45,605 nt of DNA, from the IMG/VR virus record IMGVR_UViG_3300036546_000202, positions 1 through 45,605 of that record. One strand, 5' to 3'. Numbering within the stretch: the stretch's first letter is position 1; every line of letters starts with the position of its first letter. The DNA is from a virus (lineage: Duplodnaviria > Caudoviricetes). The notes beneath the pieces are model-generated. The model did not search any database, was not told the origin of the DNA, and saw only the letters and a program-made list of their open reading frames with translations. Position numbers and translations under genes: made by a program. Shown in pieces: positions 3,417 through 44,146 of the stretch.

Positions 3417-5660
3417 CTAGATAAAAGCATATTCCGATTTGAGGACGTCTTTAATATTCAAAGCCCCTTTATCAAAGTCCACCTCCATGCCAATGTCAGC
3501 AAGGATGTGTCCGAGCACGTCATGAGAGTACAGCCTAACAAACTCTTCACGCACTATCCGGAAGAGATCGTCCATATCTCCCGGCAAACAACCAAACGAA
3601 TCGTGTATTGTTGTAACATCGAAGTCACACGCAACACAAGTCATGGCCAAGTGGGCGGCATCCAAACTGTGAATTATGTTTGGTGCTGCACCTTGAGCCT
3701 GCTTTCGCTTGGCTTTTTCTGGCAGCTCTGGGTGAGCCACCTTGATCTGGAGGGTGTTCTTATAGTACCCTGTGCTCAACCGCTCTCCTACCGGCGGCCC
3801 ATACTGCACCCAGATCTTTTTCACCGAGCCTTCTACATAATGTTGTACCACTAAGAAGTTGGTAATCGGCGTTGTCCAGTGTAAGAAATCGCCCCTGTCT
3901 TCAGCAGCTTGTCCTGCATCTGCAAAAGTGCTCAAAAGACGCATCGGCCTTTTCAAACACTCTCCACACACATCAAACAGCAGCCTGCCTAGAAAGGCAC
4001 CCCAAGAATGCTCCATCAAACTCAGGATTTCAATACCGTGTTTCCTTGAGTCAACGATTATTTGTTGCCCCAAGCCGTATGGCTTTGCCCCGTAGGGCAA
4101 TGTCATCGTACCTCGTTTTACTAGCTTGCGTCTGTCCTTGAGATCTTCAATACGAAGCCAGTAGAGAGGCGCTGCCCTTTTGATGATCTCTTTGTACTTA
4201 CTACGGTACCTAGAGATGTCCTCGGCCAGGCTCTTTCGTTCTGGGCTTCTCGGATCTGCTAGATCTGTACGTGCCTTTAAGTCTGTCAAAATGTGGATAC
4301 ATTGTTCTCCACTCTTGATGGCCTTTTCAGACATGCTCTCCCTGAGATTCATAAGGCGTTCCCACAAATTTTGACCTACATACCTGTAAAGGTCTCCTGG
4401 CATTTCTGATGGGACTAGGTTGACATGAGGTGCCGTCACTTCATCTAGGGTCAGGGCTGAGAGATGTTGGCTACCGTTGTTGCTTCCGTCGATATATACC
4501 ACAACTTGCGTAGGCATATCATAGTAGTCTTTTCCTTTTACAGCCTGAATTTCCCTGATACGTCTGAACTCCATACAGTTAGAGATCAGCTGCCACGGCT
4601 TATCTCCATTCATCCATCCTGGATAGACTTTAGGAGACGCGCCCCATTGAAGGATCATGTCTTCATTATCAAGCACCCACTGGTAACGATCGTCTGGTGG
4701 AATTTTGTCAGTCTTCTCACCATCTTCACGACCTGCATCATTCGCCCAGTTAGACGCTATACTGATACATAACCAATAGAACCCTCTCTCAGTTAGTGGT
4801 TTACCCTTAGCCCTCAGTATCAAGCCTTTGGCCAAGTCGCTGCCTTGCTCATTAAGGTATGCAGTAGAGCAATACCTACGGCCTCGGAAGTCAAGATAGT
4901 ACAGGTGGTAGAACTCTCTGTCAAGAAACATGGTTGCTATCGAGTTGATAGCCTTTATTTCCCGCTTCTTTGTTGCCATGGCTTCACGGCTGTGGGCTTT
5001 CCAGATATCATTAAATGCAGGCGCTCTGGTTTGAAAGCACCACATTTGCAGATCGTAGACTTCCCGATTAATACGCCACCCAACCCGTTGGGCGCGATTG
5101 ACTGACTCAAACATAATAGGCATGTTGCTGGGAGTTGCCCATTTTTTAACTGCCTTGTTTTTCGTCTTTATAAAGCGAGTCCCAGTTTCGGTATGAATGA
5201 AGCCTTCCCAATCCGCATAGGGCTTAGTGGAGGGTAGCTTAGTCAACCCCTCTGAATCAACACCCTCCCAGAGCTTTTGAATAGCATCATCATTAACAAC
5301 TGTAACAACGAAACTCTGATGTCCGCTCCGTCCAGCACCGAGCGAGACGTATAGCAGCTGCAACTCTTCAAAGGTGTAGACAATGAAAGCGCCTAGCTTG
5401 GCACACATACTAGAATCTTTTTTAATCCCCTTCTCTTCGAAGAAAGGATCTGCTACAGCCCTGCCCACTGCCATTATGATCTCGACAAAGAACAAAGGAT
5501 CGTCTGACCCTCTTTTGGGGCGAGTGTATAGGTACATGACTTCAATCATCTTATCATAATACTTCTCCCACTCCAACTCTTTAAAGATCTTCATCTTATT
5601 TCTTGATGATATTTCTTCTTCTACACGCCGTTGTAACGAATTTAAGATTGCTTGTTTCAT
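3417..5660 (-). CDS. T7-like single-subunit DNA-dependent RNA polymerase (747 aa)
   Basis: YYLDFRGRRY, motif A YIDGSNNGSQHL, motif B RKLVKRGTMTLPYG, APNIIHSLDAAHL, motif C TTIHDSF. Confidence 0.97.
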   Translation of the reverse strand: MKQAILNSLQRRVEEEISSRNKMKIFKELEWEKYYDKMIEVMYLYTRPKRGSDDPLFFVEIIMAVGRAVADPFFEEKGIKKDSSMCAKLGAFIVYTFEELQLLYVSLGAGRSGHQSFVVTVVNDDAIQKLWEGVDSEGLTKLPSTKPYADWEGFIHTETGTRFIKTKNKAVKKWATPSNMPIMFESVNRAQRVGWRINREVYDLQMWCFQTRAPAFNDIWKAHSREAMATKKREIKAINSIATMFLDREFYHLYYLDFRGRRYCSTAYLNEQGSDLAKGLILRAKGKPLTERGFYWLCISIASNWANDAGREDGEKTDKIPPDDRYQWVLDNEDMILQWGASPKVYPGWMNGDKPWQLISNCMEFRRIREIQAVKGKDYYDMPTQVVVYIDGSNNGSQHLSALTLDEVTAPHVNLVPSEMPGDLYRYVGQNLWERLMNLRESMSEKAIKSGEQCIHILTDLKARTDLADPRSPERKSLAEDISRYRSKYKEIIKRAAPLYWLRIEDLKDRRKLVKRGTMTLPYGAKPYGLGQQIIVDSRKHGIEILSLMEHSWGAFLGRLLFDVCGECLKRPMRLLSTFADAGQAAEDRGDFLHWTTPITNFLVVQHYVEGSVKKIWVQYGPPVGERLSTGYYKNTLQIKVAHPELPEKAKRKQAQGAAPNIIHSLDAAHLAMTCVACDFDVTTIHDSFGCLPGDMDDLFRIVREEFVRLYSHDVLGHILADIGMEVDFDKGALNIKDVLKSEYAFI

Positions 5661-28470: not shown

Positions 28471-31400
28471 TTAACCTACCCCATACCAGCCCTTGTCTTC
28501 CATGAATTCGTCATTGACTTCTTCCATAATGTCTTCCATTTTCAGGATATCTTCTTTTGTGATAACCTTACCGCCAATCTTAGACTTACCAGGAACCGGG
28601 ATCAGCCCTGATTCAATGGCTTCTTCCATATAGGCGTCATAGAGTTCTTTCGGAAGACCACGAGCTCTCATCTCATCTAGCGTTGCTTTGATAGAGTTCC
28701 TTGAGAGAACATTGCCATACAGCTTTCGAAGAGCTTCTCTGGCTTCAAGCATCTTAGCTGCATTGGTGAAGAACGCATCATGAATTGTCGAAGTGGCTAT
28801 GTTGTTTTTCTTTCCCCAGAGATGGAAGTTCTTGACAAGAGTTGCATCGTTACTATGGTTGCCATTAACTGCATAAGCAGTGCGAGCTTTAGTGACATCG
28901 GCAATGTCGTTTATCTTGCCCTTCTGATTTGTGAACTCTTCCCACCAAGTTGCTGAAGTTTTCTGAGGTACTTGGACAATATTTGTAATCCAGTTGCCAT
29001 TAGCATCTTTGTACCGAATCATTTCTTCATATTTTTGTGTGAAGTGCTGTTCAATAGTTTTGCCATCAAAGTTCACCCAAGGCACCTTGGCCCAGCTCTT
29101 AGGCAGCTTGTTAGCATAGAAGAGTTCAGCTTCCGACAGTGTTTTGGCACCACCAAGGATCTCTATCTTAGCGAATTTCTTGCCAGTACGTCTTGTCTTA
29201 GCTGATGGCATTCCGTAGAGGATGTGAGCAAGTGTGCTGTTAGGATCCCAAAACTCAAACTTCTCAAGAAATTGCCTAGATACGCTTTTCTTCGGGTCAA
29301 GACCCATCATACGGGCAACCCATTCAGGTCGAATCTTGTAACCATCTCTTTCATTTCCGAACAGCTTCAACTTGGCTATATGAACCCAGTCAAAATCAGA
29401 ACGAGACGGTTTAGCAGATTTAAGGAAATCCTCAGCCAGACGACCAAAGAACCTTGTGAAGTCTTTGAGGATGGGCACCTGAGTGTTCAGCTGTTCGCTC
29501 ATTATAGAGGCAATTAGCTTGAAGTCATCTGGTGTCACAACCTTGTTATAGCTATGGGTCATCTTCTCCACAAGATCTCTGGTCTTGGGGTCTAAGAAGT
29601 ACAGCTGTTCCATAATATCTAAACTTGGCGATTGGCCCTTGTTAAAGATATCACGGATTGTTGCCCTGAGGTCTTTCAGCTCTTGTGCTGTTATGGGATC
29701 AAACTTCTCATATCTCGCAATACGAGCGCTGATCTCATTTAGAACGGTGTCTCTGTCTGTAGCCTTTACAACAAGAGTGGCGTCCTGCTTGCCCAACACT
29801 TTAGCCAGTTTTCCTTCTACGTTAAGTATCCCTGTTCTTTCCCCAGCGCCGTAGAAAGAGACCATATTTTGCCTTATTGTTCCAGAGTGTATCGTTAGTA
29901 CACCTGCGTGTCATTCCTAGTTTGTATTAATAGATTTCCATAACACACCTCACATGTGCTCGGAATGACACAGCTATATGTTACCATATAGAGCAGACTA
30001 TATCATCACTCTCACGAGTGTCCCGCGCTTCGACTCACTTGAGTCTACAGGTTTCATAATCCGTTCTGGATCGTATGCCTTAGTCGTTGCACCTTCAAGT
30101 CTGTTCCCAGACAAGCTTGGCTCAGAGGTTGTCCCAGTGGGAGGTTCCCTGAATTCACGGGATTTTACAAGGCCCATTGTGTCAAGCCTTGGCGGCCTTC
30201 CTTAAATCTATTTCAGTCAACCCTAATCGTTTATTCAGCTCTCTGAATCGAGGATCGTTGAATGTAGCTGCAGCGATCTCATCGTATCAATATGTTCAAG
30301 CAATGGCGCAACCCATTGCCCAGCGCCTCTAAGTTAGATCAGTAGTTTTTCCAATTTTGTCCAGATCGAATTCGATAGATTGTTCCTCTGGCCACATCAT
30401 ATAGCTCAGCAATTTCTCTATCGCTCTTTCCGGCTGCAATCATCTGTCTGATTGTAGGTATGTCTTCAGCTGTAAGCTTTCTCTTACTGCTTTTTGACTT
30501 CATACCTGACAAATCGGGGCCAACGTTTTTCCAAGCCCTTCCCAGCTTTAAATTGCTAATTGTTCCTGGCGAAACTTGATATTTTTCAGCCAACCTTTGG
30601 GCAGGCACACCTGAAAGTATGGCTTCTTTTATTTCAACAACAGCAGACTCATCTAGCGTTGCCCACTTAGTAGAAGAGCCTTTACTTTTCAAACCTGTCT
30701 CGTAGGCATGGGTCGTGTTCTCAGACGATGTAACCCATTCTAAATTTTTAAAATGGTTATTAGTCTTATTACCATCTACATGGTTGACAACTAATTTCTT
30801 TGAAAAGCCGTCTACAAAAAGCTCTGCAACCATTCGATGCAATCTGTAAGACTTTTTGTCTTGGCTGTCATAAACAGATAAGTATCCGCCAGGATTCTTT
30901 GAAAACTTTCTAGGTTTTTTATTTTGCCAATTTCTGACATTTCCTAGATTACTTACTTCAAACTTAGTTTCTTTGTATCTTTTCCATATCTCTTTGCACA
31001 TGTTTATTTCCTCAAGTGCTCAGAGGCGCTTCTGCATGTTGCCATGCAGTTCAGACTATATCTTCACCCATCTTTGGGTGTCGGGCGCTTCCACCAGCAT
31101 CGACTTCTGGTGTACGGGCTTCATAATCCGGTCTGGATCGTGTGCCCTAGTCGTTGCACCTTCAAACCTATTCCTAGGTAAGCTTGGCTCAGAGGTTGTC
31201 CCATAGGGAGGTTCCCTGAATTCACCCGATTTAACGAGACCAAAGTCTAGCCTCCTCTTCTGATTGGTAGGCACTACATTGCTCAGCTCTGCCAACTGCT
31301 TATTGCGAGTTGTCAAAGCAATGATCTGAGCGCCGCTTGAACTCCATGTGTTAACAAAGGTCGTTAGCCTTTGCAAGAACTCTTCTTGTTAGTTAATAGT

Positions 31401-34400
31401 TTTTCCAGGTCTTTCCTGAAACTATTGCGTGAATTGTACCACTATGTACTTTAAAAGTACGACCTATCTCTGCTAAAGATTTGCCTTCCGAATACATGCT
31501 TCTTATTACAGGAATATCTTCTGCAGAAATCTTTCTCTTACCACGACTATTCCCCTTAGTTCCTTCTGACCTGTCAGGAAGGACCACATCAGGCATTACA
31601 TGGGTCCATCTCTTGCCATGTCGAATTTTAGAAATAGTTGCAGTGACCGTCCCAGTCAATTCAGATATTTCCTGATCATCAAGGTCGTTTAGCATAAGCT
31701 TTTTAATAAGTACAACGTCATCCTCTGTCAACTTGGCGCCTGGTCTCAAGCTTCCTAGCGGCATTAGACCTGTACTTATCGCATGCTCATGATTTTGCTT
31801 AGAAGTGACATACTCTAAGTTTTCTATGGAATTGTCAGTCTTAATGCCGTTAATGTGGTTAACTTGAAGACCGTTTGATTCACCAAGGAAGACTTCAGCA
31901 ACGAGTCGATGAACTCTCTTGTTGATCTTAGCACCATCAATGTATAAAGTCAGCTGGTGGTAGCCATACTGATTGACCTGTGGTGTTAAGACCTTGCTAG
32001 AGCGTTTACTATACACCCGACCCTTGTCACTTACTAAGTAGTTAGTATTCTTAAGTGGTTTCCAATTTTCCATAACAAGCTCCTCTTCATGTGCAAGAAG
32101 AGTTCTTCTGCATGTTGCCATGCAGAGCAGACCATATCTTCATACATTTCTGTATGTTCCGCGCTTCCCCGTCACTTGACAGGTACGGGCCTCATCCTCT
32201 GCTTGAGAGGGTACGCCCTGGTCGTTGCACCTTCAAACCCATCGCTGGGTAAGCTTGGCTCAGAGGTTGTCCCAGTAGGAGGTTCCCTGAATTCACGGAA
32301 TTTATAGACACCCGTTATTTTAAGCGTCTTGTTCTAAAGCCAATGCGGTCTTGTACTTGGAGAGCCTTTCAAGAGAGCGCTTGGAGTAATCTCCCCCAAG
32401 AAACTCATCCATCTTGGCCAGCTCAATAGCAAATCTAAAGAACTTACCCTGTTCCTCAGCATCAATCATTTGCACGAGCTCATTATCCAAGATGTCACGG
32501 ATATCTCTTGGTTTGGCTCTTCGCATTTGATTGCCGATCTTCACCATTTCATTGCGATACTTTTGGGCAATCTTCTGGCGCCCTGTGATCGTTAGAGAGT
32601 TGAAATTGCCCTCCAGCTTCTCACTGAGACCGCCGAGGAATGCACCAATCTGATCTTGGAAATTCAAGAAGTCTTTACGGCTGAAAGCATACTCTTCTGC
32701 AGTATTAAGGAACGGTCTAAACGTCTCACCACTCTGAGGGCTGATAAAACCCCTGTCGTAGATCCTTGCACGATGGTCTATGAACGGAGTATTGCTGAAC
32801 TTTCTATCAGTCTTCCGCAGCCACTCCATCGACTTAAATCGCTCATAAGAGTCACCACGAGAGGCAATGTACTTACGGTACTCATTCAGAGAGTTGTAGT
32901 ACTTGGCCCTGCCTCGGTCGTCTTCAAAGTTGAGCAGCTTATCAACAAAGTCATAGAAATCCTTGTCAATTCTGTACTCAGCTTGACCTGCCCAGTTCAG
33001 AGCGTCAACCAAATTCTTGTCAATAAACTCTTCGGGGAACTCACTGAAACTAGAGGTTGACGTGATTGGGATTCTGGTGTCTTCATAAAGACCCCACTTG
33101 TTTTTGATAAAGTAGGTCTTTCGGTTAGTCCGGAAATGCAACCGCTCGGAAGGGTCAGTCACAGCTACACGCAGTCCAACCTCAACCTTACGAGTTAGCT
33201 TAGAGTACTCCTGAATGCGAGGATCGACAATGCGAATATTGTAGCTAATGGTGTCAAAGTAAGGGCCAAAGTAAGCACCACTCATGCGGCTCTTCATCCT
33301 TCGCTTTTGAACACCGAAGGTCTCAAGCTCATACAGCTTGCTGACATTCTTAGACTGGAGGATTTTCATGCCAACCCTGTGCCACTCTTGCCGAGAGCCG
33401 GTATAGTTGGCAGCATTGTACAGATCACGACCAAGAGCAATTGCAAGCTGGTCTACATCAGGAGTGTCAGCTAAAGCCAACCGTCTGGCAAAGCGCTCAT
33501 AGAAGAATTTCAACTCTTTATCTGAGATTCTTAGCTTGATTTTAAGAGGGATAGCACTGTCAAACAGTGGCATCATCTCCTTAGCAAGCTTGGGGGCTAC
33601 TCTGTTTTCCCAACGGTTTTTCTTACGAATATTATCAAGAAAGGTGTCACCAAGCTCTTCTAATTGCGTAGCGCCTAGAACAGGGTCGATGTAGTTTGCT
33701 TGTTTTAGCTTCTTCAACAAGTCTGTATCTCTTCGGAGCACAGTCTCGATAGCGTCCGAAACGTTCATCACATCAAATTTGATCTGATTTTGAAGCACTG
33801 CTTTGAAGTTTCCCCAAGGCTCAGGATTCTTACGATATCGAGTAAAGATAATACGCAAGTTGTCAGTAATAACAGCAAGCTCATTAACACCAATTCGCTG
33901 ATCCATGTCTTTGATGAACTTTTGGATGAACTCTTTATCAGCCTTGGTGAGCTCAGTGGCTTCTTCTACCAGCCTGAGGTTATTTTCCAAGACTTGTGGT
34001 GCAGGCTGGTAAAGACGAACATCTTCGTAACGACCTGTCACAGGGTTAAAGCGCATCTGCTCTTCTGTAGGAGGTCTTGTCAAGACTCTTCTCTTAGTCG
34101 CTCGCTTGTTTCCAAGAGTGATGCCACGATAATTAGTCAGAGACAGCGTGCCATCGAGTTCCATAGACTGAAGTCTATAGTACTCCTTAAGACGTGCTTG
34201 CATTTTTGGATCGTTCAGCAAATCTTCAGGACGTGCAACTGGAAGCTTCAACATGTCCAATTCGAGCCTAGCTCTGGCAAACCTAGCAGTATCACCTTGA
34301 ACTGAAAACTCTGAGTCTGTCAGCTGGCGGAGTGCCTTAATGCCAATCGGCTTGCCCTGCATGTTGAGCAGCTGCGAACCAGTGACAGCACCCTTGTGAA

Positions 34401-36381
34401 AAGCATCGAGAGCCTCTTGGCTACCGGCGTGTTTCAACTGAATTGCCAGGGGCTGACGGCGAAGCCAATCATCATATCTAAGCTGATTTGGAACCAAGCC
34501 ATCATAATACTCACGTTGAGCTGGAGTTAACTTTTGCAGATTCCTCTTTCTAATCTGCATCACGTTATCAAGTTCGAAAAGCTTGTCCCAGCGTTTGACG
34601 ATCGGGGTCGTTGTCGAGCGGCAATTAGATCCCCAAATTGTCTTGCCATTTCTAGACACTAGAAGAGTGTGTTTTTCTGCCAACTCAAGATCTACAACAT
34701 TAAATTCTCCAGAAACCACCTCAACCTTGGCACTAGCAAATGTGCGATACGTGCTATAGTTCCAGGAGACCTTATGGACAGGGTGCCGCCCATTTATAAC
34801 CCGTCCGTCTTTAAGGTGGACAATCCTCGGTGGTTCAGTAGATAAAGTAGTGCTCCCACCAGCTTTTATCACCAGCTCAGCAAGACCATCTCTTAACCTA
34901 GGCGATGTAGTAGTAAAGGATCTTATTGGTTTAGAAACATAGTTACCGAAGTCGGAACCCTTGGTAGAGCAGCCATCTCCAAGTAAATAAAACTCTAAAA
35001 ATTTGTAAATAAGCTCTGAAGACAATTCTTTTATAAAATCAGGAATAAATTTTTCAGTGCTTTTACCAAATTGTAAGACATACTCTGCGAGGTCTTGGGA
35101 AACAAACCCAATCTTGTCTTTGCCCCAAGGACGAGGATTGAGTTCCGCCAAAACTTCCAGCATCAGCTCTCGATGAGTTTCTTGAGAGATAGCCACATTG
35201 TAATAGTTTTCACTTTTCTTTGTTACAGAGCCATCGCTTAAGTACCACGCCATGAAAGCAAGATAAGTTTCGATTGAGATGTCAATACTCTTGTATCTAA
35301 AACGAGAAACTCTTTCTCCGGTCCACTTTGAGGATAAGAAGCTTCTAAAGTCGGATTTCGGAACTTCTTCAAAACTTTCGTACTTTCTTGGCACCCACTC
35401 TTTGTAAGATCCTCGGTCTACACGCTTTTGACCTATGAAAGGGTGATCAAGACTGACAGCCAGGTCTAGACTCTTGCCGGTAATCTTGCGAATTTTATTG
35501 ACCTTCTTGGAAAAGGTCTTTACAACAGGTTGCCATGACAGGTCTTCTGTCTCTGGATCCAATGACAAACATAAATCTCCAACCTTTACGTCTTTCATTG
35601 GCACGAACCCGCTCTTGGTGTAAACTAGCGTGTCGTCCAGGTAGCAGCGAAAATGAGCTGGGGGAAGGTGTTTGACATCCCCAGTGGGGTAGACATGCCC
35701 GTGCCTGAAACGGCACAGAGGGGTCGTGCTAGAGTCCAGAATGGCCACGTACTGCCAGCCTTCCAGCGCCGGTTCGTTCGCTGCGTAGACGGCTTGGTCA
35801 GCCTGCGCTTGTACGGATGTAACCGCAGTGGTCACTAGCGCATCTGCATGCTGCTTAGTGATTTTGTGAATTCTGCCCTTTCGAATCTCCTTAGAGAGTT
35901 CTGCAGCAGTTGAGCCGTCAGCGATACCCTTGCGAATAATTCGTTCGATACGCTGGCGCTCGGAATTGGAAACTCTCGCCCAACCTTCTGCGAGAGTCTG
36001 GTCATCAGCAAGAGGGCGTTTTAAGACTATGTCTTCCCCTATTTGCCGAGATGCGGGTTTGGTACGCCAGACTTTGCTAAGTCCAGCGTCCATCACCTGA
36101 AAGGTGTAGCTCATCTGGTCATGCACCATCTCCAGCAGAGAGCGCTTAGAGACGTTGTACACCTGCTTATACGCTCTTTGCAATTCCTGATCTACCGCCT
36201 CACGCAGTGCAGCATAACCAGCATTAGAAGTTTTAGCAGAGCTAATGAGCTTGTCCAAACGGACAGTATGGTCGTCAACTATGACGAAAACCTTGTTCTT
36301 CAACATTTGCTCGTAGCGAGCAATCATTACAGCACGGTCTACTGTTTTATCGTAAAGCTCTTCATTCAAGCCAACGGCCAT
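28471..36381 (-). CDS. Spliced gene: MuF (SPP1 gp7-like) head protein fused to a T7-like RNA polymerase; exons 36381-32323, 31343-31249, 30287-30185, 29871-28471
   Basis: MuF motif WQYVAILDSSTTPLCR...PPAHFR|CRS; RNAP motifs FIDHRARIY, EQDA|SSSGAQII (A), LRKAAKA|QNMVSFYG (B), AVNGNHSNDA, STIHDAF (C). Exon lengths 4059+95+103+1401 nt keep one frame. Confidence 0.92.
29872..30184 (-). mobile_element. Group I intron 3 (313 nt, no intact ORF)
   Basis: P1 CAAGGCU/GGCCUUG with U.G at the 5' splice site; terminal G; P GAAUUCAGGGAA, Q AACCUCUGAGCC, R GUGCAACGACUA, S GAUAUAGUCU. Confidence 0.92.
30288..31248 (-). mobile_element. Group I intron 2 (961 nt) with HNH ORF
   Basis: P1 GAGGCU/GGUCUC; terminal G; same P/Q/R/S core; splicing restores KRRL-YDEIA. 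Confidence 0.92.
30339..31001 (-). CDS. Intron-encoded NUMOD4-HNH homing endonuclease with C-terminal HTH repeats
   Basis: EIWK...FEVSNLGNVR, LHRMVAELF, VNHVDGNKTNNHFKNLEWVT. Confidence 0.92.
   Translation of the reverse strand: MCKEIWKRYKETKFEVSNLGNVRNWQNKKPRKFSKNPGGYLSVYDSQDKKSYRLHRMVAELFVDGFSKKLVVNHVDGNKTNNHFKNLEWVTSSENTTHAYETGLKSKGSSTKWATLDESAVVEIKEAILSGVPAQRLAEKYQVSPGTISNLKLGRAWKNVGPDLSGMKSKSSKRKLTAEDIPTIRQMIAAGKSDREIAELYDVARGTIYRIRSGQNWKNY
31344..32322 (-). mobile_element. Group I intron 1 (979 nt) with HNH ORF
   Basis: P1 AGACGCU/GGUGUCU; terminal G; P7 GACCA/UGGUC is a compensatory change relative to GACUA/UAGUC in introns 2 and 3. Confidence 0.92.
31393..32073 (-). CDS. Intron-encoded NUMOD4-HNH homing endonuclease (start MENWKP, 226 aa)
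   Basis: YLVSDKGRVYS, VHRLVAEVF, VNHINGIKTDNSIENLEYVT; GAGGAG RBS before ATG 32073. Confidence 0.92.
   Translation of the reverse strand: MENWKPLKNTNYLVSDKGRVYSKRSSKVLTPQVNQYGYHQLTLYIDGAKINKRVHRLVAEVFLGESNGLQVNHINGIKTDNSIENLEYVTSKQNHEHAISTGLMPLGSLRPGAKLTEDDVVLIKKLMLNDLDDQEISELTGTVTATISKIRHGKRWTHVMPDVVLPDRSEGTKGNSRGKRKISAEDIPVIRSMYSEGKSLAEIGRTFKVHSGTIHAIVSGKTWKNY
34624..35646 (-). mobile_element. Intein (341 aa) with LAGLIDADG-type endonuclease, inserted in the MuF domain
   Basis: Begins CYLDDTLVYTKSG, block B VSLDHPF, endonuclease motifs MAWYLSDG and FYLLGDG, ends VVDLEL...IWGSN followed by extein Cys. Confidence 0.92.
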
Positions 36382-40095: not shown

Positions 40096-40649
40096 AGTTT
40101 AGTTGCCTCTATCTTTGCCACGTACTCATCCCGCACCAGTTCATTGATCCGGCTCTGCCGATGAATCATGTTCTGCAGCACGGCATCCATATCCTCAAAA
40201 GACCCGCGCAGTACCGCTTGTCCTGAGTCAATTGCCAGAAGCACCGCCTGGGCGCGAGGCAAGTAACGATCCCGGTCTTCCTGCGACATGGGGTCACCAC
40301 CCAGATAATCGGCTGACAGGCGCGCAAGCATCACATACAAGAATTCAATGATTTTGCTCTGGTCAGCAATCAGGTCGTGCAGATCGCCAATTTCGCCAGT
40401 AACGCGTTTGCGCAACCCCTGCTTCAACGCCGCTGCCATCTGGCTCTTTTTGATCAGATCGGACACGTCAACTGCCGGCTCTTCGCGCAGGTCAATCCCT
40501 GCGTGCTGCTCGGCAGCTGCTGTACCCACGTACCAGTGCCGCCCGTCACGCTCCCCGATGTAGTTCAGGCTGCTATCGTCAGCCGCCTTGGGTCGAAGGC
40601 TTGTACCGTTCGGCCCTGTTGTATCAACATGCAATGCTGAGTAGATCAT
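40092..40649 (-). CDS. Hypothetical protein, likely fibre-associated, in the GC-richer DGR module
   Basis: 185-aa ORF overlapping the end of RT. Confidence 0.7.
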   Translation of the reverse strand: MIYSALHVDTTGPNGTSLRPKAADDSSLNYIGERDGRHWYVGTAAAEQHAGIDLREEPAVDVSDLIKKSQMAAALKQGLRKRVTGEIGDLHDLIADQSKIIEFLYVMLARLSADYLGGDPMSQEDRDRYLPRAQAVLLAIDSGQAVLRGSFEDMDAVLQNMIHRQSRINELVRDEYVAKIEATKL

Positions 40650-41646
40650 TGTTCACGCTCTCCCGCTGAATGCGCTCTATAAAGTATCGGTGCGAGGCCG
40701 TATGCTTCGCGTTTGCCAGTATGCTGCGAACGCTGTCGATCTTCTCGGCACGCAGCGCCTTTGAGAAATTGCTCATTGATCGGCGCCGGACGAAACGTGT
40801 TGATCGCCAGGTGCGAAACCCCACGAAATTGATGCCCTGCTTCACCTTGGCAATGCGCCACTTGGATAACTTCAGCTCCAGGTTATCCGCCAACCACTGC
40901 TCAAGGTGTGCTTTCAAATCACGCGCTTCAGCCAGCGTAAGACCAACCAATACGAAGTCATCAACATAGCGCAGATAGCGCTTAATCTTGAGGTGCCGCT
41001 TGATGTGGTGGTCCATCCGATCCAGATAGATCAGTCCAAACAGCTGACTTAGTAGGTTGCCGATAAATAGCCCGGTACCACCAGCGCCGACAAACTGCAT
41101 CATTAAGTCAACCACTCGAGGGTCGCTCACTTTCCTTGCCACGCGCTCCCGCAGCAGGTCGTGGTTGATCGAGTAGTAGAACTTGCGGATATCCAGCTGC
41201 AGGTAATACTCCTCCCCGTCACATTGCCGCATAAACCGCTGCAGTTGATCTGCCGCCCTGTGCGTCCCCTTTCCTATCCGGCAGCCGTAGTTGTCATGGA
41301 TAAAGCCACGGTCAAACACCGGATACACAGCACGGTAAATACTGTGCTGCACCACCGAGTCATAGAATGCCGGAGCGTCGATCACCCGAGGCTTTGGCCC
41401 TGTCACCACAAACTGACGTGTCAGCCTTGGCCGGTAGCTCCCATCCAGCAACGCTTGCCGAGTGGCAATCAGATTCGCGCCCAGGTTGCGCTCGTAACGC
41501 TCTACCGGGCCGCGGTTACGCTTGCCTTTACGTGCATCAAGAAACGCCTGATACAGCGCCTCTTCCGACGCAATGTGTTCAAGAATGGGCATGCTATGTG
41601 ATTCAGAGCAGAGGCCCGCAGAGTTCGCTTTCGCAGGATGAGTCAT
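40624..41646 (-). CDS. brt: DGR reverse transcriptase (start 41646 or internal ATG 41592)
   Basis: GCRIGKGTH, LQLDIRKFYYSI, GLFIGNLLSQ (DGR-type SQ), YLRYVDDF, GINFVGF; adjacent to TR and avd. Confidence 0.96.
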   Translation of the reverse strand: MTHPAKANSAGLCSESHSMPILEHIASEEALYQAFLDARKGKRNRGPVERYERNLGANLIATRQALLDGSYRPRLTRQFVVTGPKPRVIDAPAFYDSVVQHSIYRAVYPVFDRGFIHDNYGCRIGKGTHRAADQLQRFMRQCDGEEYYLQLDIRKFYYSINHDLLRERVARKVSDPRVVDLMMQFVGAGGTGLFIGNLLSQLFGLIYLDRMDHHIKRHLKIKRYLRYVDDFVLVGLTLAEARDLKAHLEQWLADNLELKLSKWRIAKVKQGINFVGFRTWRSTRFVRRRSMSNFSKALRAEKIDSVRSILANAKHTASHRYFIERIQRESVNNDLLSIAC

Positions 41647-41690
41647 CCCTATCTCTCCAGTATTCCTGTTACGGATGTCAGGTTAAAGAA

Positions 41691-41813
41691 ATAGTCCGAG
41701 GCACGCGGCGCAGCGTTGAAGTAGTCGTACGACCGGAAGATGTTGAAGTTCCGGTAGAAAACGCCAGCGCTCGCCGCATTTGTCCAATAGCCGCCAACAA
41801 TCGGGAACATATT
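41691..41813 (-). repeat. DGR template repeat (TR)
   Basis: 123 nt, 113/123 identical to the 3' end of the target gene; non-coding position between avd and RT. Confidence 0.93.
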
Positions 41814-41819
41814 AATGGC

Positions 41820-42197
41820 TCACCCTTTTTGGCTGGCAATCCAGCCACCTATCATGGCGCCCACTTCGTTGATCTTGGCGGAGATCGCAGTGTAGCGCCG
41901 GACAGCCTCCTTCTGAGGCTCACACTTCTCGCTGCGCCGGTACTCGAAATACCCCAGCTCGAATGCCAGATTGAAATACATGCGCAGTTTCTCGTGCTCG
42001 ATATCGAGGTTGGTCAGCGTTGTCTTCTTGTGATAACGCTTCTCGCCCTCAACGATGTAACCATAGATATCGTACAGGCAGCACCTGATCTGCTGTGACA
42101 GCCCGTACTTCTCATGCTTCGGGAAATGATTCAGGTAGACATTCGCCAGCTTGATCATTTCCCGGCTTTTGTGGATCAGGTTGCTGTGTGGATTCAT
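41820..42197 (-). CDS. avd: DGR accessory variability determinant (125 aa; start MNPHSN)
   Basis: FPKHEKYGLSQQIR...LDIEHEKLR...EVGAMIGGW four-helix-bundle signature. Confidence 0.93.
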   Translation of the reverse strand: MNPHSNLIHKSREMIKLANVYLNHFPKHEKYGLSQQIRCCLYDIYGYIVEGEKRYHKKTTLTNLDIEHEKLRMYFNLAFELGYFEYRRSEKCEPQKEAVRRYTAISAKINEVGAMIGGWIASQKG

Positions 42198-42207
42198 GTC
42201 AGTTAAC

Positions 42208-42227
42208 GCCCGCGCTGTCACGCGGGC
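42208..42227 (-). promoter_or_regulatory. DGR target-recognition hairpin/cruciform downstream of VR
   Basis: GCCCGCG-TGACAG-CGCGGGC, 8 nt after the target stop codon; contains a GRNA-type (GACA) loop. Confidence 0.8.
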
Positions 42228-42235
42228 AAACATCC

Positions 42236-44146
42236 TTACTGGAGATAGGCCGAGGCACGCGGCGCAGCGTTGAAGTAGCCGTACGACCGGAAGATCTTGA
42301 AGTTCTGGCAGAAAACGCCAGCGTTCGCCGCATTCGCCCAATAGCCGCCCGCAATCGGGAACATATTGTGCCGGTTGTAACGGTTCAGATAGTCGTTGCC
42401 AAACTGATTTGTTCCTGTCGCACTGGTCGCATTATTGTCTTTCGGGATAAACCCTGCAGTGCTCCATGAGACACCGCTACCTGCCCCATCAATCACTTGA
42501 TTCGACCCATTACCCCAGTACACCACGCCGGTCGTACTGCCCAACGCATGCGGGCTAGTCACACTGTCATACAGCGTGTTCAGGTGCGCTGTATTGCCCC
42601 ACGCATCCGTACTGCCATCCCACCCGGCGGTCAGTGACGCCAGCGCAACGGACTCTTTCAACACGTAGATCGTGTCATTTGTGATTGCAGTTGTGCTGGT
42701 GGCGGAGGTGCCGGGGGCCGTAATACCCAAGGCGCAGTCAAAGAGCGAGCCATTCAGATCAGCTATGCCACAGTTTTGGCCGTTGTGTGTCGTCTTGGCG
42801 AATGGCACACCACTGCCGGCAAGCGGCTTGTCCGCGGTACCCGCGTCACCTGCGGTGGTGAATGTAACACCCGAATCATTTACATCAGACAACGAGCTGT
42901 TGCAGCCTTTCGGGAAGTTAGTCGTGCCGGTGGCGTCATACCAAGCGCAGGCCGCAGTGCCTGTGGCCATTTGGCCGTGAGCAAGTGACAGGATAGCCAG
43001 AGCGCCAAGCATAAACGCCGAACACTGGTTGTACTGACTGCCGCGCGCACGCCCCAGCACCACAGCATCGGCCAGAATCCCGGTGCAGCCAGTCATAGTG
43101 GACGATGGGTTATAGCTGGCGTTTGTGGTTAGGCCGATCGGTGACTGGTTCTTCACCGAAACCGCTGCGTTACCAGACTTACTGTTCAGGTACTTATCAA
43201 AAAAGAAGCCCGACTTCTCTGCACCACCGTCAATAAACGCACGATGCAGCACATACCCTGCCGCATTGGCAGAAGCGGTATCACTGAATTGGTCGATTCC
43301 CGCGATCTCAATGCTGTTAGCGCCGTAGGTCGCGTACTGCGGCGCAGCGACGTTACCAACGCGGTAGTAGAACTTCGGCACAAACACCATGATAGAGCCG
43401 TTGGTGTGCTGGTAGTTGCCGTAATTGTCGTGGGTCGGATCAGTGGTGCCGGTCATCGCCGACAGCCCAGCAGTAGCAAGATCGTCATGCGGGTAAGTAC
43501 CCGCACCGAAACCCTGCTGACCCGCTACGCCGATCAACCCGCCAAAAGTGTCTGCAGTTGTAAATTGCGCCGTGGTCATCCAGCCAGAGATCAGCGAGGC
43601 GCTTTTGTAGCGGACCCGCCAGTAGTACAGCGTGGATTCCACTAATCCATCGACCGTCCAGCTTTCCAAATTCACCGCATCATCCAGTGATTGCGCGATA
43701 ATATTGGTGAACCCGGAGTCTGTCGCCACCTGCCAATCACTGCTGACATGCGCTTCAAAGCCTGCAGGGGTAGTTGCATACATAGACGCAACCAGCTCAA
43801 CAGAACTACCCTGATCAATCGAGCCATTACTGGGCGCAACGAGTGTCGGCGTAACGATACCTGCAGGCTGTATTGGGAATTCCAGTGTGCGCCCGTTGAT
43901 TGTCAGAGTCTCCGTCCCGGCTGTCGCCGGAGCCGCGTAGGTCAGCGTGTCGCCGTCAATAGATACAGTGCCGAGCACAGCCGATACTGTATATTCGGTC
44001 AGACTGTCGTAGTTGGTGATCGTGCCGGTCATCGACTGGGTGATGTAAATTGAGCTGGTAGACCACTGAACCGTAATACTTTTAGTATTTTCTAACTCAC
44101 TCCTTATAGTATTGAACTCTTGCGCTATTCGTGTAGCTAAAGTCAT
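42236..44146 (-). CDS. DGR target protein: adhesin/fibre with Ig/FN3-like domains and C-terminal C-type-lectin-fold variable domain
   Basis: YYWRVRY FN3-like motif; GIADLNG and GGYW...AGVF...R C-terminal CLec pattern containing the VR. Confidence 0.88.
   Translation of the reverse strand: MTLATRIAQEFNTIRSELENTKSITVQWSTSSIYITQSMTGTITNYDSLTEYTVSAVLGTVSIDGDTLTYAAPATAGTETLTINGRTLEFPIQPAGIVTPTLVAPSNGSIDQGSSVELVASMYATTPAGFEAHVSSDWQVATDSGFTNIIAQSLDDAVNLESWTVDGLVESTLYYWRVRYKSASLISGWMTTAQFTTADTFGGLIGVAGQQGFGAGTYPHDDLATAGLSAMTGTTDPTHDNYGNYQHTNGSIMVFVPKFYYRVGNVAAPQYATYGANSIEIAGIDQFSDTASANAAGYVLHRAFIDGGAEKSGFFFDKYLNSKSGNAAVSVKNQSPIGLTTNASYNPSSTMTGCTGILADAVVLGRARGSQYNQCSAFMLGALAILSLAHGQMATGTAACAWYDATGTTNFPKGCNSSLSDVNDSGVTFTTAGDAGTADKPLAGSGVPFAKTTHNGQNCGIADLNGSLFDCALGITAPGTSATSTTAITNDTIYVLKESVALASLTAGWDGSTDAWGNTAHLNTLYDSVTSPHALGSTTGVVYWGNGSNQVIDGAGSGVSWSTAGFIPKDNNATSATGTNQFGNDYLNRYNRHNMFPIAGGYWANAANAGVFCQNFKIFRSYGYFNAAPRASAYLQ
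42245..42367 (-). repeat. DGR variable repeat (VR) with IMH end
   Basis: Aligns to TR without gaps (offset 554 nt). Confidence 0.93.

Follow-up and report, generated by a model that had tools for sequence, protein, structure and literature searches.

Several phage genes carry more than one group I intron. In orf142 of the Staphylococcus phage Twort, three group I introns have been described, two of them highly similar members of subgroup IA2 with a 23-nt exon between those two (PMC10136302, PMC11878797), and in Bastillevirinae the DNA polymerase and terminase genes contain two or three introns each, with a nuclease type that is decoupled from the ribozyme clade (PMC11878797). Group I introns with an HNH gene have also been found beside conserved Asp residues of phage RNA polymerase (RNAP) genes, including that of a virion-packaged RNAP, in PhiPA3 (gp210) and AR9/PBS1 (PMC11620839, PMC12350094). 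HNH intron endonucleases of the I-HmuI/I-BasI type nick DNA (PMC2988022), and how group I introns come to occupy new sites is regarded as an open question (PMC3984707). Here we analysed a 45,605-nt stretch of DNA from a tailed phage (Caudoviricetes; IMG/VR record IMGVR_UViG_3300036546_000202; the whole stretch is called the window) in which, judging by covariance-model matches and homologs, three group I introns interrupt, at its catalytic motifs, a gene for a T7-like RNAP fused to a MuF head protein (MuF-RNAP). Each intron is probably a homing element that arrived separately and is bound to its own site, and sequence tracts were probably exchanged among the ribozyme cores afterwards.

An earlier sequence-only reading of this DNA had proposed three group I introns, and a covariance-model search bore this out: RF00028 matched three times on the minus strand, at 74.8–85.4 bits (gathering score, 50), and no other Rfam family matched in the window. 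Intron 1 (32322–31344; 979 nt, 74.8 bits) is inserted in phase 0 after Asp1352-Ala1353 of motif A, intron 2 (31248–30288; 961 nt, 85.4 bits) in phase 2 within Leu1385, directly before the Tyr that corresponds to T7 Tyr571, and intron 3 (30184–29872; 313 nt, 80.1 bits, z −3.3), which has no open reading frame (ORF), in phase 0 after Lys1418-Ala1419 of motif B. The positions at motifs A and B are those given before, and the two micro-exons of 95 and 103 nt were recovered as well, with boundaries and homologs in agreement. On the minus strand, exon 1 (32323–36381, amino acids 1–1353) comprises the MuF head domain, an intein and the N-terminal part of the RNAP up to Asp1352-Ala1353, exon 2 (31249–31343, 95 nt) the remainder of motif A to Leu1385, exon 3 (30185–30287, 103 nt) the sequence to Arg1414, Lys1418 and Ala1419 of motif B, and exon 4 (28471–29871) the Tyr-Gly of motif B, motif C and the C-terminus, with an RNA_pol match (E 1e-6). 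Removing all three introns left a single open frame of 1885 amino acids, the product of which aligned with intact homologs of ~1540 amino acids over all three junctions, and a homolog consensus (n=27) was continuous across each of them.

Each intron has its own P1, as the sequence-only reading had noted; these P1 helices are U.G-closed and 6–7 bp long, and every intron has a terminal G. The 5′ exons all end in GCU, those of sites 2 and 3 in AGGCU. The compensatory change that had been reported in P7 is present, with a C-G pair in intron 1 (GACCA/UGGUC) and a U-A pair in introns 2 and 3. Such variation is common in the family beyond these three introns: P7 was paired in all 74 family cores, with three paired types in 65, 6 and 3 cores, and an exact P3 complement was found in 67 of the 74, across many sequence types. 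Subgroup IA2 is characterized by two hairpins, P7.1 and P7.2, between P7 and P3′. Both were present in the predicted folds, fitting IA2, which has been described as heterogeneous (PMC11878797). Alternative 3′ splice Gs that keep the frame open (five for intron 1, none for intron 2 and two for intron 3) were rejected, as they would add or remove residues with respect to the homologs, and chance or an assembly artefact was excluded by the Rfam matches, the homologs and independent runs. The introns are predicted to self-splice.

The interrupted gene (28471–36381, minus strand) combines a MuF minor head domain with a complete T7-type RNAP. Phage_Mu_F matched at amino acids 144–246 (E 4e-10), motifs A, B and C occur in order with their catalytic residues, and PF00940 was found on exon 4 and on the intact homologs. 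Asp1352 was aligned with T7 Asp537, and the Tyr that follows intron 2 with T7 Tyr571, via a second RNAP of the same genome, and motif B with N4 RNAP2; taken alone the two alignments are weak (E 0.21 and 0.29, respectively), but they are colinear and anchored to T7 numbering through the second RNAP. A profile search against the PDB found no RNAP at E 0.001. When exon 4 was searched against longer proteins, 349 relatives were obtained among 8000 candidates, and most of the 120 relatives among the matches listed were proteins of ~1540 amino acids with PF04233 and PF00940. By these domain matches and motifs, the host gene encodes a T7-like single-subunit RNA polymerase joined to a MuF head protein. 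The fusion to MuF and the position of the split gene between the portal and scaffold genes make it a candidate virion-packaged polymerase with a role like that of N4 gp50, and a widespread one.

Introns 1 and 2 each contain, after P9, an intact ORF with a NUMOD4, an HNH_3 and a helix-turn-helix (HTH) element, in which NUMOD4 and HNH_3 exceeded the Pfam cut-offs. This NUMOD4-HNH-HTH layout is that of I-HmuI/I-BasI-type endonucleases. HNH1 (31393–32073, minus strand) comprises 226 amino acids from the second ATG, or 242 from 32121, and HNH2 (30339–31001, minus strand) 220 amino acids. HNH1 was 57–59 % identical to the HNH proteins encoded at site 1353 in other phages, and HNH2 51 % identical to the site-1385 HNH of loci L384/L385; HNH1 and HNH2 shared 41–42 %. 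In agreement with this, HNH1 grouped in the tree with three site-1353 proteins (support 100/99) and HNH2 with those of L384/L385 (support 95/92), the true sites in this tree being 1385 for L384 and 1419 for L143. Kinship by site and the changed flanks of intron-less alleles described below suggest that HNH1 and HNH2 are likely site-bound homing endonucleases that would nick intron-less alleles. A predicted hairpin (32073–32105, minus strand) covers the Shine-Dalgarno sequence of HNH1; a similar hairpin arrangement is found in the late-translation control of T4 intron endonucleases.

To place the cores, we used 74 distinct sibling cores from the MuF-RNAP gene family, at 13 site labels, and 118 from other genes, all collected by pattern scans and a hidden Markov model; seven cores, three of them in RNAP genes, had been dropped by the anchors beforehand, and four more were dropped before the block comparison. 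The whole cores of introns 1–3 were 76.7, 73.6 and 78.7 % identical in pairs, and a 42-nt block spanning P4, P5 and the 5′ strand of P6 (32254–32295 in intron 1, 31183–31224 in intron 2 and 30116–30157 in intron 3, all on the minus strand) reached 93–98 %. The 'near-identical core' of the sequence-only reading is therefore true of part only. Among 1513 pairs of cores from different genomes and different sites the block averaged 71 %, and 0–0.3 % of these pairs reached the identity seen among introns 1–3. A diagnostic 11-mer of the block occurred in 3 of 192 cores, all three in this phage, and a core pattern containing it gave no matches in a metagenome contig collection.

On whole cores, the best tree kept introns 1–3 together (approximately unbiased (AU) test, p=0.54), and clades joining cores of the same site were rejected (AU p=0.021, 0.0002 and 0.0004). 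When the block was removed, the tree with introns 1–3 together was 24 log units worse (p=0.19, not rejected), the clades of site 1353 (p=0.29) and site 1385 (p=0.21) were no longer rejected, and that of site 1419 was (p=0.005); as each other's neighbours, introns 1 and 3 then ranked 14th and 29th of 58. Exact tracts of at least 25 nt were shared by 7 of 35 within-genome pairs, as compared with 50 of 1723 pairs from different genomes and different sites. In locus L272, exact tracts of 46, 32 and 26 nt were each shared by a different intron pair, and L255 had one of 35 nt.

Intron content also differed among close strains. Eight of the 24 listed runs were examined, in which the contigs were short unitigs of strains mostly 95–100 % identical (~99 % for those with intron-less joints). 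Intron 3 was skipped exactly, by 313 nt, in four of the eight runs, intron 2 (961 nt) was skipped within 1 nt of the prediction in four, and intron 1 was absent in seven, with three flanking bases different; the junctions thus lie where the sequence-only reading had put them, with those qualifications for introns 2 and 1. The intron-less allele of site 1 still encodes Asp-Ala-Ser, but without the U that P1 requires, and the type of Ser codon that follows site 1 in this phage was found in 2 of 78 intron-less homologs. We infer that the three changed bases fit co-conversion during homing. ORF-less alleles were found for intron 1 (two of eight runs) and for intron 2 (one of eight). Near residue 1221, a fourth sibling intron seems to be present in close strains, at a site that is empty in this phage (32720..32721, minus strand, in Phe ~1221; joint 32309–32718 in three of the eight runs, shorter side 30 nt); this intron has its own 7-bp U.G-closed P1, and over its first 30 bases the core is the same as that of intron 1. 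Weak hints came from a joint that could indicate an HNH-bearing allele of intron 3 (three of eight runs, shorter side 26 nt) and from a chimeric core joint in run X3, and run X5 gave no joints. Taken together, these comparisons point to a split ancestry of endonuclease and core, alongside live presence–absence variation.

Several observations weigh against site-bound elements with exchanged core tracts. Other site-1385 HNH proteins (L379, L394 and L386) fell outside the HNH2 clade, the trees were built on ~200 columns with weak support, and the strain joints rest on short unitigs with 26–94 nt on the shorter side. After removal of the block, the cores nearest to intron 2 were still those of intron 3 (rank 1 of 58) and intron 1 (rank 3), which, together with the trio clade that was not rejected (p=0.19), an older duplication also explains. 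The excess of exact tracts rests on this phage and two other phage types, in pairs that are not independent, and with this phage left out the within-genome block similarity was 0.708 versus 0.710 (p=0.66, 19 pairs). The longest tracts (86, 46 and 45 nt) were shared between genomes, so that exchange is not local only. Finally, spliced RNA was not seen in RNA runs X23 and X24 (share 0.05–0.07), because both contained only an intron-less relative: their contigs, 90–95 % identical and with intron-less codons, speak neither for nor against splicing.

The sequence-only reading had proposed that one intron lineage spread locally by retargeting its guide. In such a history one core would have been duplicated to several motifs within the lineage, by reverse splicing or illegitimate recombination, its guide changed, and an HNH cassette of the same site captured afterwards. 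We consider this rather unlikely, even with the kinship of the three whole cores and the rejection of same-site core clades in its favour. The fourth intron of close strains has 30 nt or more in common with intron 1, the GCU and AGGCU ends of the 5′ exons mean that little guide change would be required, and the genome encodes a reverse transcriptase (40624–41646). This enzyme, however, is part of a diversity-generating retroelement (40624–42367) with a 126-nt repeat pair (41688–41813 and 42242–42367, 91 % identical), and the accessible text of a review describes the reverse-splicing route as without direct experimental evidence (PMC3984707). The kinship signal is, moreover, concentrated in the 42 nt of the block, other phages have introns at each of the three sites, and the HNH genes sort by site, so that local spread would require additional swaps. 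The core kinship in the earlier proposal thus stands, while a recent retargeting of a whole intron does not fit with occupied sites elsewhere, site-grouped HNH genes and a trio that loses its lead without the block.

The opposite account, independent homing only, would make the block ordinary P4–P6 conservation or convergence with no exchange between introns. P4–P6 is the most constrained domain, same-site pairs of cores are more alike overall than different-site pairs (0.695 vs 0.619), and the P6′/P7 motif GAAGGTGCAACGAC is general to the intron class, with ~1500 such stretches estimated in IMG/VR. But the variable P5 stem falls within the block, as does an 11-mer that the other 189 cores all lack, almost no background pair matches its identity in this phage, and exact tracts of 35–46 nt recur within other genomes; homing without exchange is therefore disfavoured, and we regard it as improbable. 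There are reports of exon skipping in Twort orf142 and in phage SIOphi (PMC10136302, PMC11878797), and the guide of intron 3 could, by eye from the sequence, pair over 6 bp with the 5′ site of intron 2, which might point to a maintained regulatory device, a splicing switch or exon skipping that tunes the amount of polymerase. Each intron is missing in some close strains, however, and skipping of exon 2 or exon 3 would shift the frame, with stops at amino acids 1356 and 1403, while skipping both would remove 66 amino acids of motifs A and B. Exon skipping would thus only inactivate the enzyme, and a regulatory role is very improbable.

Under the reading we prefer, site-bound elements with later core exchange, GTP-initiated splicing at each U.G site would restore the 1885-amino-acid precursor, from which the intein would be excised afterwards. 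During co-infection each HNH protein would nick intron-less alleles at its own conserved motif, a target unable to mutate away, and the intron would be copied into the nicked allele together with a few flanking bases; later loss of the ORF would yield ORF-less alleles. Self-splicing and nick-initiated homing are established features of group I introns and HNH endonucleases (PMC2988022, PMC11620839). Recombination or gene conversion could then copy short core tracts between sites, since the sibling cores are 60–80 % alike and 1 kb apart, and selection would keep P1 and the HNH gene tied to the site. More tentatively, the introns of the MuF-RNAP family may form a recombining multigene family, in which guide and endonuclease are fixed to one of at least 13 sites and the cores trade tracts within and between genomes, caught here mid-cycle in a living population; a group I intron of this family would then be a collection of modules that reassort.

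The intron sites of the family cluster at motifs A, B and C, and those of introns 1, 2 and 3 are each occupied in other phages; the labels were derived from patterns, '1220' being truly one base later and the label 1419 of L341 doubtful. At least three cores were present in 11 of 91 core-bearing loci (loci overlap, and genomes are fewer), and other family members have four or five introns, so this phage is typical of its family, which is heavily invaded by introns. Homologs were retrieved as the best 80 of 411, which favours intact genes, and the 89 of 99 loci that were intact are therefore not a frequency. In a scan for the site-1 junction RNAP genes made up 3 of 18 loci, in the site-2 scan an intron was present at site 2 in 9 of 27 loci, and the genome collection gave two loci. 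Four introns lie in one gene of L272/L390, with one exon of 11 nt. In EBPR siphovirus 1 (JF412302; L001, 10367–11217), site 1423 is occupied by a group I intron of 850 nt with an HNH gene; this intron is unannotated, and in the record the interrupted gene appears as two, gp47 and gp49. Related cores also lie in genes of other kinds (L407, L339, L020, L028, L411, L015 and L019), which were assigned by eye from flanking translations; that of L407 follows motif A of an N4-like RNAP subunit, and the others lie in terminase-like, reductase-like and capsid-like genes. Two further kinds of insertion were seen in the RNAP gene: one of ~140–220 codons near residue 1330, directly before motif A (L007–L012, L143, L379, L383 and L400), which is not a group I intron and is in frame where it was read (L010 and L143), and one of 690 nt near residue 1450 (L021, L025 and L031), unmatched by the core model.

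The genome is that of a long-tailed phage, with portal, scaffold, capsid, tail and DNA polymerase genes and a second, ordinary T7-like RNAP (3417–5660) that is uninterrupted. The intein in exon 1 (34624–35646, minus strand; 341 amino acids, Cys246–Asn586) lies at the end of the MuF domain and gave weak matches to LAGLIDADG_3 (E 2e-4, below the cut-off) and Hint (E 0.06). It is missing in homologs, including a relative that is 97–99 % identical (L013), and an intein-less allele was found in two of the four runs examined over it. The intein, the MuF-RNAP fusion and the HNH genes of introns 1 and 2 went unmentioned in the sequence-only reading. A scan for promoters and terminators returned no more than shuffled sequences gave.

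The literature covered, which included few subscription papers, neither showed an intron in a T7-type phage RNAP gene nor described a MuF-RNAP fusion, and exchange of core tracts among the introns of one phage was not reported in it; PMC5746245, PMC5418858 and bioRxiv 2025.10.29.685362, as far as their accessible text goes, are not precedents. An RNAP gene with three such introns had been called unusual, which holds only in part: a phage gene with three introns and phage RNAP genes with introns have both been published, and family members with four or five introns exist. The family extends the host range of these introns to T7-type polymerases, and explains why the gene has been annotated as a head protein with unknown ORFs. 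A single gene here offers at least 13 sites, its ribozymes are siblings, and close strains vary in the presence and the ORF of each intron, so that retargeting, homing and tract conversion should be distinguishable by sequence and simple assays.

The same MuF-RNAP gene lies between portal and scaffold in EBPR siphovirus 1 (gp47–49), where it carries the sibling intron at site 1423 and both RNAP and intron are unannotated, and in DSS3_VP1 (MN602266), where it is listed as a 'minor head protein-like protein', with the RNAP unannotated, and is uninterrupted across all three intron sites. Like Twort orf142, the gene has three introns with short exons between them; the Twort host is a tail tube gene for which exon skipping has been shown, whereas in this phage the interrupted gene encodes a single-subunit RNAP, the exons measure 95 and 103 nt, two of the introns hold HNH ORFs and splicing is predicted. 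Two or three introns per conserved gene and the decoupling of nuclease and ribozyme are shared with Bastillevirinae, where the host genes are others and where site-bound HNH genes combined with genome-bound core tracts are not described in the accessible text (PMC11878797). HNH1 and HNH2 share with I-HmuI and I-BasI the NUMOD4-HNH-HTH layout and their location in phage group I introns, but appear to have two HTH repeats, and their nicking is predicted. The RNAPs of PhiPA3, AR9 and PBS1 are multi-subunit, two-barrel enzymes of jumbo phages, in contrast to the T7-type enzyme of a small long-tailed phage with 13 family intron sites. Taken together, the introns are elements of a familiar kind, correctly delimited in a new host gene, and more interesting than their presence is that endonuclease and core differ in ancestry, seen together with live presence–absence variation.

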